A stretch of 64,000 bases of DNA from Escherichia phage JY01. The notes below the pieces were generated by a model. It was not told the origin of the DNA. It did no database searches and was given only the letters and a program-made list of their open reading frames with translations. Within the stretch, counting starts at the first letter, position 1. Each line of letters opens with the position of its first letter. A program made the translations under genes and the position numbers. Positions 17,586 to 49,211 of the stretch are shown here, piece after piece. The stretch lies in sequence record OR995200.1; one strand, written 5' to 3'.

Positions 17586-17827
17586 TAAACTTTCCTCGCT
17601 AAATCGCGAATTTGACCTACAGTATAATCTTGGATATAAACTTTATTAATGGGCTCATCAATAAATTTTGCCATAGATTCAATATCTTTTTGCATCTCTT
17701 CAAGACTGTATACTATCTTTGAAGCTTTTTCACGAATAGTTACATTTTCAGGTCCTGGATTTTCTTCAATGACAGCTTTAACATTTGCCATAAGAGATTT
17801 AAACTGATACCAACTTAATTCAATCAT
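17585..17827 (-). CDS. Hypothetical protein (80 aa)
   Basis: ORF between dda and dexA. Confidence 0.4.
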   Translation of the reverse strand: MIELSWYQFKSLMANVKAVIEENPGPENVTIREKASKIVYSLEEMQKDIESMAKFIDEPINKVYIQDYTVGQIRDLARKV

Positions 17828-18080
17828 TAATAATCGCCTTATAAAGATGGCTAATTTCGCCTAAAACATAATCACTGATTGTAACAGTTTTCACTTCACC
17901 ACAAAAGAATTCTAACGCAATTAAATCTCGTTCAATTTCTTCTAATTGAAGCATTAACTTGCCAGATTCAATTTTTACATTTCTACGATTTTTACTATAA
18001 GCTATTTCATAAATTTCGCTCACATTATCTTGAAGCAGATAAAACTGGTCTTTAGTTATTTCCACGAATAGCTTCCTCAA
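17820..18080 (-). CDS. Hypothetical protein (86 aa)
   Basis: ORF between dda and dexA. Overlaps neighbours by a few nt. Confidence 0.4.
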   Translation of the reverse strand: MRKLFVEITKDQFYLLQDNVSEIYEIAYSKNRRNVKIESGKLMLQLEEIERDLIALEFFCGEVKTVTISDYVLGEISHLYKAIIND

Positions 18081-24244: not shown

Positions 24245-24481
24245 TTAACCACCTATTTCTGTAGGTGTAAACATCGCAGCATTCTTAGTTTTCCAGTCAG
24301 CTGCATCAGAAACTACAGTAGAATATGCCGCCTTTTCAGAAGGAAAGGTCTGATAATGAGAATCTGCAATACGATGCTCGTTAGAATAGATTTCAAATGG
24401 AACAGAAACTTCCATACCTTTAACTTCTTTGCCTTCACCTGCTGGATGAGTAAAGGTCTTGATGTTAACGAAACCACCCAT
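24245..24481 (-). CDS. soc: Small outer capsid protein Soc
   Basis: 78 aa, FVNIKTF...HYQTFPSEKAAYSTV matches recalled T4 Soc motifs but is diverged from it. Confidence 0.8.
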   Translation of the reverse strand: MGGFVNIKTFTHPAGEGKEVKGMEVSVPFEIYSNEHRIADSHYQTFPSEKAAYSTVVSDAADWKTKNAAMFTPTEIGG

Positions 24482-24512: not shown

Positions 24513-24520
24513 TATTTATA
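24513..24520 (-). promoter_or_regulatory. Late promoter (TATAAATA) for soc
   Basis: Exact TATAAATA on the minus strand about 30 nt upstream of the soc ATG, with an AAGGAG Shine-Dalgarno. Confidence 0.5.
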
Positions 24521-24522
24521 AC

Positions 24523-24663
24523 TTATAATTTAGCGGCTTTCCAGAGTTGTTCAATAATCTCTTGGTCTATTTCTTTAGTTATTTCATTACGTAATAAAGC
24601 AGTAAGGGCTTTCGCCCTTTTCTTATTCAACTTTTTGAGTTGACGTTTATTTAAACGAGACAT
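24523..24663 (-). CDS. Small basic protein (about 46 aa, not in ORF track)
   Basis: MSRLNKRQLKKLNKKRAKALTALLRNEITKEIDQ... ATG overlaps the gene 56 stop (TAATG). Confidence 0.3.
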   Translation of the reverse strand: MSRLNKRQLKKLNKKRAKALTALLRNEITKEIDQEIIEQLWKAAKL

Positions 24664-25181: not shown

Positions 25182-25252
25182 TATTTTTCCTTTCAATTCA
25201 TGGGTTAGTAGATTAATTATACAATAAATATATAAAGCAATAAGGAGGACAT

Positions 25253-25453
25253 ATGGTACAAAAATTAATGGCACTTGTTAATGCCATCAAAGGTAATAAG
25301 AAACGTATAGCTTTTACTATTTCTGCTATGGTAGGAATTTTACTCTGGAACTTTATTTTATCACCAATTGCAATTGCACATGGTGTTAATATTCCAGTAG
25401 TTACTCTTGATACATTTGTAGATTTAGCATTTGCTTTAGTTGGGTTAATTTAA
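25253..25453 (+). CDS. Small hydrophobic protein on the plus strand (66 aa)
   Basis: Strong AAGGAGG Shine-Dalgarno 5 nt before the ATG. Two predicted transmembrane segments. Convergent with and overlapping the primase stop. Confidence 0.55.
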   Translation: MVQKLMALVNAIKGNKKRIAFTISAMVGILLWNFILSPIAIAHGVNIPVVTLDTFVDLAFALVGLI

Positions 25454-26478
25454 ATCTTAGCATATTTAGATAACCGCATTTTAGCCATCAACCCCTGGGC
25501 AATATTATTTTTCATATATTCCATAATTTGTTCAGGGGTTGCACCTTCCTTTCTAATCATATCATTAACATCTTTTGATTTCCAGGGAGATTTATCCCAA
25601 AACATAACCCTTTCTCCTGCATCAACTAATTTAGTCATTCGCTTAATAGTGTCAGGATGACGAGGTTCATTATCTAAGACCCACACACGCCTATCTTTAA
25701 ATGGAACAACTTCTAGGTCTAATTGACCACCCGTAATAGCTATACCATTTTCAATAAAAAGTGAATCTATAGGTCCTTCTAAAACATATACATCACCATC
25801 TTTAACTCGTTCGACTCCATATATTTTTGTTGCCTCAGGATAAGCTTTGATGGTGATATATTTTTGAGGAGCATCTTTCTTTAATGCACGCCCTTGAAAC
25901 GACTCGGCTTTTCCATTAGCATTATAAATTGGAATAACAAGACGAGGCTCAGAAATTTCCTTTTTGTATGTTCCCGGTGCTATGCTATTAACTAATTTAG
26001 GCCATTCGGTTGTAAACCAAAGATATTTCCATTTATCCTTTGGAATACAACGAGCTTTTACATATTTTATAATTGGATGGTCTTCCACCAGTTTATCTAA
26101 TCTAACACATGACTGAAGAGATTTAATTATTTTCTTCTCAGGATGTTTAGGAAGTTCTTTAGGTTTTTCTACTGGACGACTTTTACCTTTTTCTTTTCTT
26201 ATTTCAAAGATATACTCACGATATAAATCAGGTTCAAACTCCTTTAAATATATTCCGATTGGTGCATGATAGTTACAGTTATAACAATGAATATTTCCTT
26301 CATTATTATCACCGTAATACCATCCACGGGCTTTATTCTGGTCGGTTTTTGAATCTCCACAAACAGGGCATCTAAACCGTAATTTAAAAGTTGAACTATT
26401 ATTTACTTGTGTGAATTTAGGTAAATGAGCTAATGCACGATACGCAAACTCATTATCAATCCAAGGTATTGATGACAT
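25450..26478 (-). CDS. 61: DNA primase
   Basis: 342 aa as in T4 gp61. N-terminal zinc ribbon CPVCGDSK...CYNC. Confidence 0.9.
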   Translation of the reverse strand: MSSIPWIDNEFAYRALAHLPKFTQVNNSSTFKLRFRCPVCGDSKTDQNKARGWYYGDNNEGNIHCYNCNYHAPIGIYLKEFEPDLYREYIFEIRKEKGKSRPVEKPKELPKHPEKKIIKSLQSCVRLDKLVEDHPIIKYVKARCIPKDKWKYLWFTTEWPKLVNSIAPGTYKKEISEPRLVIPIYNANGKAESFQGRALKKDAPQKYITIKAYPEATKIYGVERVKDGDVYVLEGPIDSLFIENGIAITGGQLDLEVVPFKDRRVWVLDNEPRHPDTIKRMTKLVDAGERVMFWDKSPWKSKDVNDMIRKEGATPEQIMEYMKNNIAQGLMAKMRLSKYAKI

Positions 26479-27004: not shown

Positions 27005-27646
27005 TTAACCTTTATTCATAAAAGCATTAAAAATTTGATCGTCAATAGAAACTTTTACTTTAGGCTGTTCTTCAAACGGTAATTCATATCCACATATTAC
27101 AATTTTGTGATCAATATCAAAATACACAGAAGAAATATGATTAATGATGTTTTCAGTAAAGTCTAAATCAACATCAATATCTTTTTGACCACAGCCCAAA
27201 GGATAAATAATGCGAGTAATTCGATTATCTTTAACAAATATTCCACCGACATACTCTGTGCTGCGTTTAAAGTTTACACGTTTCCTAAATGAAAAATATT
27301 CAGGCTCTCTATGAGCTCGGCTCATAGGACACAACGAGTAACTAGAATAAGAGATGTCAAATCCTACACCTTCAATATGAGCCAACGCGTCATGATTAAA
27401 CCAATTATAATCGTACGCCAAATCCATTATATTGTAATATGTGAAAGGCACCGGATTAACATCATGCGTTGTACCTTTAAAATCTGCCCAGGCAACGATT
27501 TCGTTATCTTTAACAATTACAAAAATTGTGCCAATAAGATATCCACGGTTATTTTCATCAGGCGTTATATTATAACATTGTGCACCAGGAAATTTACCGT
27601 ATTTAAACGGTGGATTTTTGTGCATATAATAAATCATATTATTCAC
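27005..27646 (-). CDS. Hypothetical protein (213 aa)
   Basis: C-terminus SIDDQIFNAFMNKG, shared with the downstream 118-aa gene. Confidence 0.5.
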   Translation of the reverse strand: MNNMIYYMHKNPPFKYGKFPGAQCYNITPDENNRGYLIGTIFVIVKDNEIVAWADFKGTTHDVNPVPFTYYNIMDLAYDYNWFNHDALAHIEGVGFDISYSSYSLCPMSRAHREPEYFSFRKRVNFKRSTEYVGGIFVKDNRITRIIYPLGCGQKDIDVDLDFTENIINHISSVYFDIDHKIVICGYELPFEEQPKVKVSIDDQIFNAFMNKG

Positions 27647-28461: not shown

Positions 28462-28494
28462 CTACTATACCATAGTCTTGTCAGCTTGTAAACT
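28462..28494 (-). promoter_or_regulatory. Early promoter upstream of dmd
   Basis: GTTTAC, 17 nt, TGGTATAGT on the minus strand. Confidence 0.5.
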
Positions 28495-29920
28495 AAAATT
28501 TTAATTCATTTGCCAAAGCATCTAACTGAGCTCGAGTGGATTCATTTCTTTGATAGCGATTCTGTTCAGCCTGAATCTGTTGTGAACCTGCTACTTCACT
28601 CACTTCAGTTGGAGTAGAATCTTGTTCAATTTCTACCCATTTTTGATTTCCTTTTTGAACACCCATCAAAAACTTATTCCACTTATTCTTATCACCATAT
28701 CGTGATTTGATTTGCTTAATGAGTTGTTGTTCAGCAGCTGCTAGCTCCTCGGTTTCAATGACCGCAAGCATAAAATCAGCTGTTGCTGGAAGACCAGCAG
28801 ATTCTGCAATATCACTCATGTTAACATCAGAAGAGTCCCAAGCTTGTTTACCGACCTGTGCTGCAGTCCAAAGAACAGTTTCGGTTTCAACAGCCAGAGC
28901 ACGTAATTCCTCTGCAATAGCTTTAACAGTTGTGTAACTATTTTCTGAATAAACTCTAATGCGACAAGATTTACAAATACCTAGATAGTCGACAATAATG
29001 ATCGTTGGAACAAAATTCTTTTTGAGCTTCAATTCATTCAAGAGAGACCTGAATGTATTAGCGTCTGCTCCACCAGTGGGATACTGTTTAACGATTAAAC
29101 GACCGAGAGTAGATTTCTCACGCCATTTTTCCATTTTTCCTTTATACTCGGCGTAAGAAATATGTCCATCATCAATATCGTCAAGAGAAACATCGAGCAT
29201 GTTAGCATCAATACGTTTAGCACAGACTTCTTCTGCCATTTCCATGGAGATATAAAGAACGTTATGACCAAGCTGTAAATAATCCGCTGCTAATGAACAA
29301 AGTCCTAATGATTTACCAACGTTAACGCCAGCCATTAAAACGTTCAGTGTTCCTGTCTCAGCTCCGCCTTTAGTAATTTTGTTTAGAATTCTGAGTTTAA
29401 ATGGAACTTTACGAGCTTTATTCATATAAGATAGCCAGCGTGCTTCGTAGTCATCCATCCAATCATGACCAACGTAGCTATCAAATGAAATTGATAATGC
29501 TTGACGCATGATATCAGGAATAGCACCTACATCTGGCATTTTCTTATTTCGTTTTTCCGGAGGAAGCTCAGCATTAGTTTGAATTTCGATTATTTTAGAC
29601 GTAGCATTAAACATCGCCCTTTGCTGAACATATTTTTCTGTTTCTTTTACTAACCAACTGTGGTCTTCTGGAGAATCGGCTAGTTTTGAAATAAGTGTTT
29701 TTACACCAGAATATTCTGTTTCAGTAAATGAACTATTTTCTAATGCAACATTTAACGCATTAATAGATGGAACGCTATGATACTCATTAACATGAGATTT
29801 AATTAATTTGAATGTATTTTTAGCTGGACCACTTTCAAAATATTCTGAATCCATATATGGCCAAACTTTTGAAAAATAAGCTTGATCAAATATAAGATGA
29901 GAAAGAATAATTTCTACCAC
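28493..29920 (-). CDS. 41: Replicative DNA helicase (DnaB family)
   Basis: 475 aa as in T4 gp41. Walker A GVNVGKS. GTG start codon. Confidence 0.9.
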   Translation of the reverse strand: MVEIILSHLIFDQAYFSKVWPYMDSEYFESGPAKNTFKLIKSHVNEYHSVPSINALNVALENSSFTETEYSGVKTLISKLADSPEDHSWLVKETEKYVQQRAMFNATSKIIEIQTNAELPPEKRNKKMPDVGAIPDIMRQALSISFDSYVGHDWMDDYEARWLSYMNKARKVPFKLRILNKITKGGAETGTLNVLMAGVNVGKSLGLCSLAADYLQLGHNVLYISMEMAEEVCAKRIDANMLDVSLDDIDDGHISYAEYKGKMEKWREKSTLGRLIVKQYPTGGADANTFRSLLNELKLKKNFVPTIIIVDYLGICKSCRIRVYSENSYTTVKAIAEELRALAVETETVLWTAAQVGKQAWDSSDVNMSDIAESAGLPATADFMLAVIETEELAAAEQQLIKQIKSRYGDKNKWNKFLMGVQKGNQKWVEIEQDSTPTEVSEVAGSQQIQAEQNRYQRNESTRAQLDALANELKF

Positions 29921-48928: not shown

Positions 48929-49211
48929 GAGAAATAATTCCTTGGTAAGCCCAATAAGGAGGATTAACAGAATCCTCACCAGAGTTTTCTTCAGGAAAAT
49001 AAACCTGGATAACGAAGCCGGATTCATCAAAGGTGAAATAAGTAGTAGGCAGTTCACCTAACAAATCGGCACGAGCGTTGATTTCTTCGAGGTCTTGTTC
49101 ACGTCCAGCCCAGAAGCTTGGGTTCAGACTACATTCATAGAAATAATAGTCATTACCGAACATATCAAAACCATTCCAACTCTCTACTACATACCGCTCA
49201 AAACTAATCAT
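48900..49211 (-). CDS. Hypothetical protein (103 aa)
   Basis: ORF between nrdG and nrdH. Overlaps the nrdH 5' end. Confidence 0.45.
   Translation of the reverse strand: MISFERYVVESWNGFDMFGNDYYFYECSLNPSFWAGREQDLEEINARADLLGELPTTYFTFDESGFVIQVYFPEENSGEDSVNPPYWAYQGIISRGTKLELKE

Follow-up and report, generated by a model that had tools for sequence, protein, structure and literature searches.

A small open reading frame (ORF) is annotated as RB69ORF029w in phage RB69 and as RB32ORF030w in phages RB32, RB51, and RB14, and Nolan et al. (2006) tabulated RB69ORF029w with a predicted transmembrane segment at residues 21-41 (PMC1524935). Here we examine its counterpart in Escherichia phage JY01, a 66-codon ORF on the plus strand (25253..25453) of a 64,000-nt stretch of sequence record OR995200.1 (hereafter the window), lying between genes 56 (dCTPase) and 61 (primase). 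The RB51 protein is identical to the product of this ORF and is labelled RB32ORF030w, "similar to RB69ORF029w", and the product matches the PHROG 2024 profile along its length (E 1.5e-31; residues 2-66 on profile positions 1-65 of 65). The ORF is RB69ORF029w/RB32ORF030w/PHROG 2024, an already catalogued hypothetical gene whose family has no assigned function. Stray database records label family members "holin", "putative holin", or "putative head morphogenesis protein", none of them with a family match, and a literature search on the names of the ORF, T4 ribosome profiling, small ORFs, and start sites found nothing specific. What we add is evidence across the Tevenvirinae that this is a late gene, its omission from the curated annotation of T4, and a testable picture of its product. 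Overall, we consider it likely that the ORF is a real, late-transcribed gene encoding a single-pass membrane protein.

A Conserved Gene of Enterobacterial T4-Like Phages

The length of the ORF is not significant by itself, because the DNA is AT-rich, and spurious antisense ORFs of 30-120 aa are numerous in the ORF list of the window; it is the comparative evidence that decides. On that evidence, this is a true gene, inherited vertically among enterobacterial T4-like phages (Tevenvirinae) and evolving under purifying selection. The sequence-only reading from which we started had made its case depend on conservation in close relatives, and such conservation is extensive: a tblastn search found the protein in 692 phage records, nearly full length in 686. 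Identity is at least 90% in about 500 of them and 44-56% in a further 190. The latter group comprises Mosigvirus (RB69, G53) and Gaprivervirus (DK-13, TH40), in which the place and orientation of the ORF are unchanged. Only two length variants were seen among the homologues, both in-frame deletions of three residues, and all five other reading frames of the ORF are interrupted by stops. The ratio of nonsynonymous to synonymous substitution (dN/dS), estimated by the Nei-Gojobori method within and between the three genera, is 0.11-0.22 in Tequatrovirus, 0.13-0.21 in Mosigvirus, and 0.34-0.56 in Gaprivervirus; comparisons between genera, where dS is saturated, give 0.18-0.48. Summed over the three genera, variable sites at codon positions 1, 2, and 3 number 27, 6, and 36.

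The family is narrow, since a profile search of 1.84 billion representative proteins returned 10 matches only. The distant ones that could be placed (P0078, P0080, and P0077; 23-29% identity) come from other T4-like phages and uncultured contigs, and these relatives likewise lie between dCTPase and primase genes on the opposite strand. With distant members as queries, tblastn adds Jiaodavirus (KPV15), Gelderlandvirus (Melville), and Kanagawavirus (KLB31), again with the arrangement unchanged. The opposite-strand location between genes 56 and 61 was confirmed in the window, T4, RB51, T2, RB69, G53, and DK-13. The family thereby spans at least six genera of Tevenvirinae, carried by phages of Escherichia, Shigella, Salmonella, Klebsiella, Citrobacter, Yersinia, and Enterobacter.

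The translation signals are equally persistent. The sequence-only reading had pointed to the strongest Shine-Dalgarno sequence of the neighborhood, and AAGGAGG is indeed found 4 nt before the ATG; only two exact copies exist on both strands of the 64-kb window. The other, at 48956, sits antisense in a minus-strand gene, and no start codon was found after it. In 17 loci of Tequatrovirus, Mosigvirus, and Gaprivervirus, AGGAGG or AAGGAG is kept 4-6 nt before the ATG, and the distant loci keep GGAGG or GGAG, so that a Shine-Dalgarno sequence and an ATG are present in every lineage examined.

T4 itself carries the ORF intact at 17738..17938, abutting gene 61, with 96% DNA identity, 66 codons, and two amino-acid changes. 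The curated T4 records AF158101.6 and NC_000866.4 leave it unannotated; an automated annotation of a T4 derivative includes it. The sequence-only reading had supposed that T4 has different content in the 56-61 interval; this holds in that dam is inserted between gene 56 and the ORF, but the ORF itself is there, unannotated. Since T4 is a reference organism of molecular biology, adding the gene would be a small but real correction, and studies that rely on the annotation miss it; one is the HIDEN-SEQ transposon screen discussed below, in whose T4 gene table the interval is empty. The gene also becomes a candidate among the few late membrane proteins of T-even phages.

Two database matches deserve separate mention. 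The "homologue" P0076 resembles a C-to-T converted copy (Ala to Val, Thr to Ile, Pro to Leu, His to Tyr, and Ser to Phe throughout) and probably derives from bisulfite-type or deaminated reads, not from a natural variant. A weak member, P0081 (L021 4001-4210, plus strand; profile E 9e-4, PHROG 2024 E 5.8e-11), lies in a siphovirus-like prophage, has no ATAAATA upstream, and is accompanied by tail-tip, endonuclease VII, and serine recombinase genes and a weak "minor tail" match. A lead toward holins by way of this prophage member was rejected, its neighbors being neither endolysin nor spanin genes.

A Putative Late Promoter and the Timing of Expression

Orientation provides the first clue to timing. 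In T4, early and middle transcripts all run counter-clockwise, and late transcripts run either way (PMC2988020). Counter-clockwise polarity corresponds to the minus strand of the window; the ORF is on the opposite strand, which fits late transcription only. Because early and middle transcripts are all minus strand, a plus-strand gene at this place should be late.

A second clue is a putative gp55-type late promoter, the ATAAATA core of which ends 22 nt upstream of the ATG. The transcription start predicted from it, at about A25236, would give a 17-nt leader carrying the Shine-Dalgarno sequence. At -13 the putative promoter has A, the variant met most often among T4 late promoters (9 of 50 listed; PMC2988020); this position is poorly conserved in T4-like phages. 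ATAAATA is a rare word here, with five copies on both strands of the window (128 kb) against 40.5 expected. In 11 of the 12 lineages examined (among them T4, T2, RB69/G53, Gaprivervirus, KPV15, KLB31, and three uncultured ones) it precedes the ATG by 12-22 nt, and the other upstream sequence diverges; the homology of the window to T4 and T2 starts right at the motif. A pattern scan for sigma-70-type plus-strand promoters of the ORF gave none above background. Taken together, these findings speak strongly, though indirectly, for a late promoter, which may be a weak one. We therefore favor the suggestion, already made in the sequence-only reading, that this is a late gene, as the one that best fits both the orientation and a core shared by 11 of 12 lineages, and regard the ORF as very probably gp55-dependent.

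In KPV15 (Jiaodavirus) and the uncultured lineage L017, a GC-rich hairpin directly follows the stop codon of the ORF (AAGGGGCtttgGCCCCT and AGGGGGttacaCCCCT, respectively), between the convergent genes. It could be a terminator for one or both strands, and its presence hints that the ORF is transcribed as a unit of its own. Upstream of the ORF, KPV15 has ATAAATA twice.

Several further observations concern late-promoter words in general. Perfect TATAAATA was looked for upstream of the ORF and is absent; the window holds a single copy, against 10.7 expected, upstream of soc (24513-24520, minus strand). By these counts and those of ATAAATA, late-promoter words are strongly avoided in this early region. 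A second plus-strand ATAAATA (27203-27209) is followed directly by the ATG (27210) of a 34-codon ORF that has no Shine-Dalgarno sequence; this ORF is antisense to a 213-aa minus-strand ORF (27005..27646), beside a 61.2-like ORF, and is probably due to chance. For T4 as a whole, a differential RNA sequencing preprint counts 150 start sites, 22 of them antisense (10.1101/2024.04.04.588121).

Predicted Topology and Conserved Motif of the Product

The sequence-only reading had described a small membrane protein, and topology prediction agrees. In a hydrophobicity analysis, a single segment, covering about residues 19-42, is confidently predicted to span the membrane. It is preceded by five Lys or Arg and no acidic residue, and followed by two Asp and no Lys or Arg; across the family, 5-7 basic residues come before the segment and 0-2 after. 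The best 19-residue segment has a summed insertion energy near zero or negative, and the last 19 residues, at +6 to +13 kcal/mol across the family, are unlikely to span a membrane alone. An AlphaFold2 model built on a 25-sequence alignment (mean predicted local distance difference test score, pLDDT, 76.5) has helices at residues 2-12, 16-42, and 52-65. From these helices together with the charge distribution, we predict a single-pass inner-membrane protein with its N-terminus inside and its C-terminus outside, leaving some 24 residues external.

The family shares the motif W-N-[FY]-x4-P-x5-G-x3-P-x4-[DE]. W32, P38, G44, and P48 do not vary, more than 90% of sequences have N33, and position 53 is acidic. 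These residues are concentrated in the outer half of the membrane helix and at the start of the external tail, which hints at specific binding of another membrane protein on the periplasmic side. Searches for recognizable relatives outside the family gave little: no match in Pfam, sub-threshold noise only in NCBIfam, a best E of 2.4 in a sequence profile search of the PDB, and nothing with Foldseek against the PDB. Foldseek against viral structures returned family members only, the noteworthy non-self match being a protein of Enterobacter phage CIP9.

Organization of the Locus

The features of the locus are collected in table 1. The source region belongs to a T4-type phage, Tequatrovirus; over the 1.9 kb around the ORF, it shares 99.9% identity with Escherichia phage ECML-363 and about 98% with wV7, RB51, and RB68. 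Every real gene around the ORF (soc, 56, 61, 61.1, and on to 41) is on the minus strand, so the ORF stands among them in just the position and orientation that the sequence-only reading had given, and it runs convergently into the primase gene with overlapping stops, also as described there; the overlap amounts to 4 nt.

Table 1. Features of the 56-61 region in the JY01 window and parts of the predicted product.
Feature	Position	Strand	Details
ORF	25253..25453	+	66 aa, ATG to TAA; product MVQKLMALVNAIKGNKKRIAFTISAMVGILLWNFILSPIAIAHGVNIPVVTLDTFVDLAFALVGLI
Shine-Dalgarno sequence AAGGAGG	25242-25248	+	ATG 4 nt downstream
Putative gp55-type late promoter AATAAATA	25223..25230	+	positions -13 to -6; core ATAAATA 25224-25230
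Stop-codon overlap, 4 nt	25450-25453	both	ORF TAA 25451-25453 (+); primase TAA 25450-25452 (-)
MotA-box middle promoter for gene 56	25216..25239	-	TGCTTTA, 11 nt, TATAAT
Terminator-like hairpin with UUUUUGU	25255..25290	-	11 pairs, loop of 4; hairpin 25290..25265; pattern scan
soc	24245..24481	-	
Gene 56 (dCTPase)	start 25181	-	real start (MAYFNE...)
Gene 61 (primase)	25450..26478	-	342 aa; converges on ORF
61.1 and onward to gene 41	gene 41: 28493..29920	-	
Product parts	residues 2-12; 13-18; ~19-42; tail of ~24 residues		amphipathic helix; basic cluster K13-R18; transmembrane segment; external tail with short helix 52-65

The 4-nt overlap recurs in T4, T2, RB51, RB69, Melville, KLB31, and the uncultured L022 and L023. 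It is absent in KPV15, in L017, and in Gaprivervirus DK-13, where a homing endonuclease gene lies between the ORF and the primase gene. Compared with T4, the source phage lacks segF (between soc and 56) as well as dam (between 56 and the ORF), and a 46-codon minus-strand ORF (24523..24663) occupies the place of segF. T2 has dam plus a further gene, of 181 aa, upstream of the ORF. The 56-61 junction is an insertion hotspot, yet both the ORF and its promoter core have been kept despite every insertion.

Two minus-strand elements overlap the ORF or its promoter. The terminator-like hairpin lies in codons 5-13 and is stable only as minus-strand RNA (-14.0 kcal/mol, z = -3.8; z = -0.08 for the plus-strand RNA), because C-A mismatches take the place of its G-U pairs when the other strand is read. 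In Yersinia phage fPS-65 this site carries the annotation "terminator", and the primase transcript probably ends at the hairpin. On reading the aligned sequences of Mosigvirus and Gaprivervirus, we saw no conservation of the hairpin; since it is not conserved outside Tequatrovirus, it cannot explain the conservation of the ORF. The second element is the MotA-box promoter of gene 56, a pattern with 11 copies in the window (8 of them on the minus strand) against 2.6 expected, and T4 has the same architecture upstream of gene 56. In the window, the spacer of this promoter is the reverse complement of the ATAAATA core, so that the middle promoter and the divergent late promoter share the same DNA. 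The equivalent gene-56 transcript of T4 has been noted as the oriA primer. The locus is a compact example of one DNA stretch serving both strands, as coding sequence and terminator and as late and middle promoter.

An Orthologue in a Transposon Screen

HIDEN-SEQ, a transposon-sequencing preprint, covers T4 and its relative Bas37 (10.1101/2025.11.20.689424). The Bas37 orthologue is bas37_0144, a "hypothetical protein" at 91945..92145 (plus strand) that shares 4 nt with the primase gene bas37_0145 (92142..93170, minus strand) (10.1101/2025.11.20.689424); its coordinates coincide with our blastn match to MZ501089.1. Insertions are recorded at 20 of its 24 TA sites and the gene is classed "Non-essential", with 119.5 reads per site, a neutral-like value, as against a lowered 16.2 for RI (10.1101/2025.11.20.689424). 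In three of six host comparisons, the strains of which are not all identified, it has log2 fold changes of 0.33, 0.20, and -0.28, none of them significant; the T4 gene table lists no gene between dam and gene 61 (10.1101/2025.11.20.689424). Because the orthologue tolerates insertions, the gene is accessory under the conditions of the screen. The idea of the sequence-only reading that this might be a host-interaction gene is still speculation; the orthologue is dispensable on E. coli K-12 and without effect in the three comparisons.

Possible Function and Alternative Explanations

We envisage the following course of events. Late in infection, RNA polymerase modified by gp55, gp33, and gp45 would start at the variant late promoter NATAAATA (here AATAAATA), giving a short-leader mRNA from about position 25236, and the very strong Shine-Dalgarno sequence would drive synthesis of the 66-residue protein. 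The protein is predicted to enter the inner membrane in a single pass, with its basic amphipathic N-terminus in the cytoplasm and about 24 C-terminal residues in the periplasm. The conserved W32, N33, P38, G44, P48, and acidic residue 53 would then occupy the outer half of the helix and the beginning of the periplasmic tail, and the protein would most likely bind another membrane protein at the periplasmic face, rather than act as an enzyme or channel. As to the process served, our first guess, a tentative one, is the late envelope and lysis program (holin modulation, lysis timing, or envelope integrity); a host-specific or anti-defence role comes next, with somewhat less in its favor. That the protein is specifically a late T-even envelope or lysis component that tunes holin T or relays the lysis-inhibition signal, or else a conditionally essential countermeasure to a membrane-acting defence, seems to us rather unlikely. 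If true, T4 would carry a conserved, functionally important gene that is absent from its curated annotation.

A number of observations weigh against this picture. Salmonella phage Melville has ATTAAATA instead of NATAAATA. The base at -13 is A, G, or C, and never T, in all lineages, so the promoter may be weak. A hidden Markov model scan of RB69 in 2006 called no late promoter at the ORF. For the functional part, the evidence consists of the topology and the conservation pattern, and the screen records no phenotype for the orthologue, the three host comparisons included. To our knowledge, decades of r-mutant hunting in T4 have mapped no rapid-lysis mutation to the 56-61 interval, which argues against a strong role in lysis inhibition.

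In an alternative scenario, which we judge unlikely, the gene is a conditionally required host-range or anti-defence factor directed against a membrane-located host system that some natural Enterobacteriaceae have and laboratory strains lack. Its conservation in at least six genera infecting diverse Enterobacteriaceae, yet dispensability on E. coli K-12, is what such a factor would lead one to expect. However, known T4 anti-defence genes are mostly early, and no homology lead, of the PADLOC type or other, was found. HIDEN-SEQ bears on both sides: many non-essential T-even genes proved to be of this kind, but bas37_0144 is not depleted in three comparisons, one of them apparently with the Druantia III isolate (10.1101/2025.11.20.689424).

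It is quite improbable, in our view, that the main role of the locus is regulatory, with late transcription converging on gene 61 and crossing the gene-56 middle promoter to shut off primase and middle transcription, the peptide being secondary. The late core does lie inside the spacer of the gene-56 MotA-box promoter on the other strand, and plus-strand RNA, for which no terminator is predicted in Tequatrovirus, would run antisense to gene 61. But dam in T4, and dam with a further gene in T2, split the ORF from the gene-56 promoter and yet the ORF and core are kept; in KPV15 and L017 transcription would stop at the hairpin directly behind the ORF, short of the primase gene; and the selection seen at the protein level would be left unexplained.

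There is only a slim chance that the product acts as a holin or pinholin, permeabilizing the inner membrane to trigger lysis. It is small, probably late, and membrane-embedded, members are labelled "Holin" (UniRef, phage OE5505) and "putative holin" (Klebsiella phage KP1079), and distant members give weak, sub-threshold matches to a holin PHROG (E 0.012) and GTA_holin_3TM (E 0.1). No Pfam or NCBIfam holin family is matched, however, and the PHROG that is matched has no assigned function. Holins usually end in a charged, hydrophilic C-terminal tail; here the layout is reversed, all Lys and Arg being N-terminal and the C-terminus (...LAFALVGLI) hydrophobic and free of basic residues. The flanking genes encode dCTPase and primase, not endolysin or spanin, and T4 already has a well-characterized essential holin, gpt. 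The tolerance of the orthologue to transposon insertions also argues against a role as sole holin. The label fails on three of the four defining features that we tested, namely family match, charged C-terminal tail, and lysis cassette.

Finally, it is scarcely credible that the ORF is untranslated and its frame fortuitous, the sequence being conserved as primase mRNA 3' untranslated region and terminator or as template of a late antisense RNA: a minus-strand terminator-like hairpin does lie inside codons 5-13, and the Tequatrovirus plus strand has no predicted terminator before 30007, so that antisense RNA would run through gene 61 into gene 41, but the hairpin takes up only 26 of the 201 nt and shows no conservation beyond Tequatrovirus, substitutions are of the coding type (dN/dS 0.1-0.5; 27/6/36), the protein motif survives at 23-29% identity where the DNA can no longer be aligned, the Shine-Dalgarno sequence and ATG are kept in every lineage, and the ORF is separated from the primase gene in DK-13, KPV15, and L017.

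Comparison with Known Systems

The preferred reading, a late gene for a single-pass membrane protein, can be set beside several described systems. Small holins (class II holins and pinholins of about 70 aa) resemble the product in size, hydrophobicity, and probable late expression. They differ from it in having two transmembrane segments, against one confident segment here, and in their charge distribution, which is the reverse. RI, Imm, and holin T are likewise phage inner-membrane proteins with one or two helices and periplasmic or membrane contacts, and RI and T are late-expressed. The likeness is one of kind: family, PDB, and Foldseek searches found no sequence or fold similarity between the ORF product and these three, and RI and T have sizeable periplasmic domains, whereas the ORF product would expose about 24 residues only. 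As a transcription unit, the ORF recalls soc, a short gene in the early 39-56-61 region with a late-promoter motif of its own. However, soc is a minus-strand gene with a perfect consensus promoter, and its product is a soluble protein that decorates the capsid, whereas the ORF is on the plus strand, has a putative promoter variant at -13, and encodes a predicted membrane protein. Closest of all is the RB69ORF029w family, with which the ORF agrees in place, orientation, and the single transmembrane segment, and from which nothing structural sets it apart.

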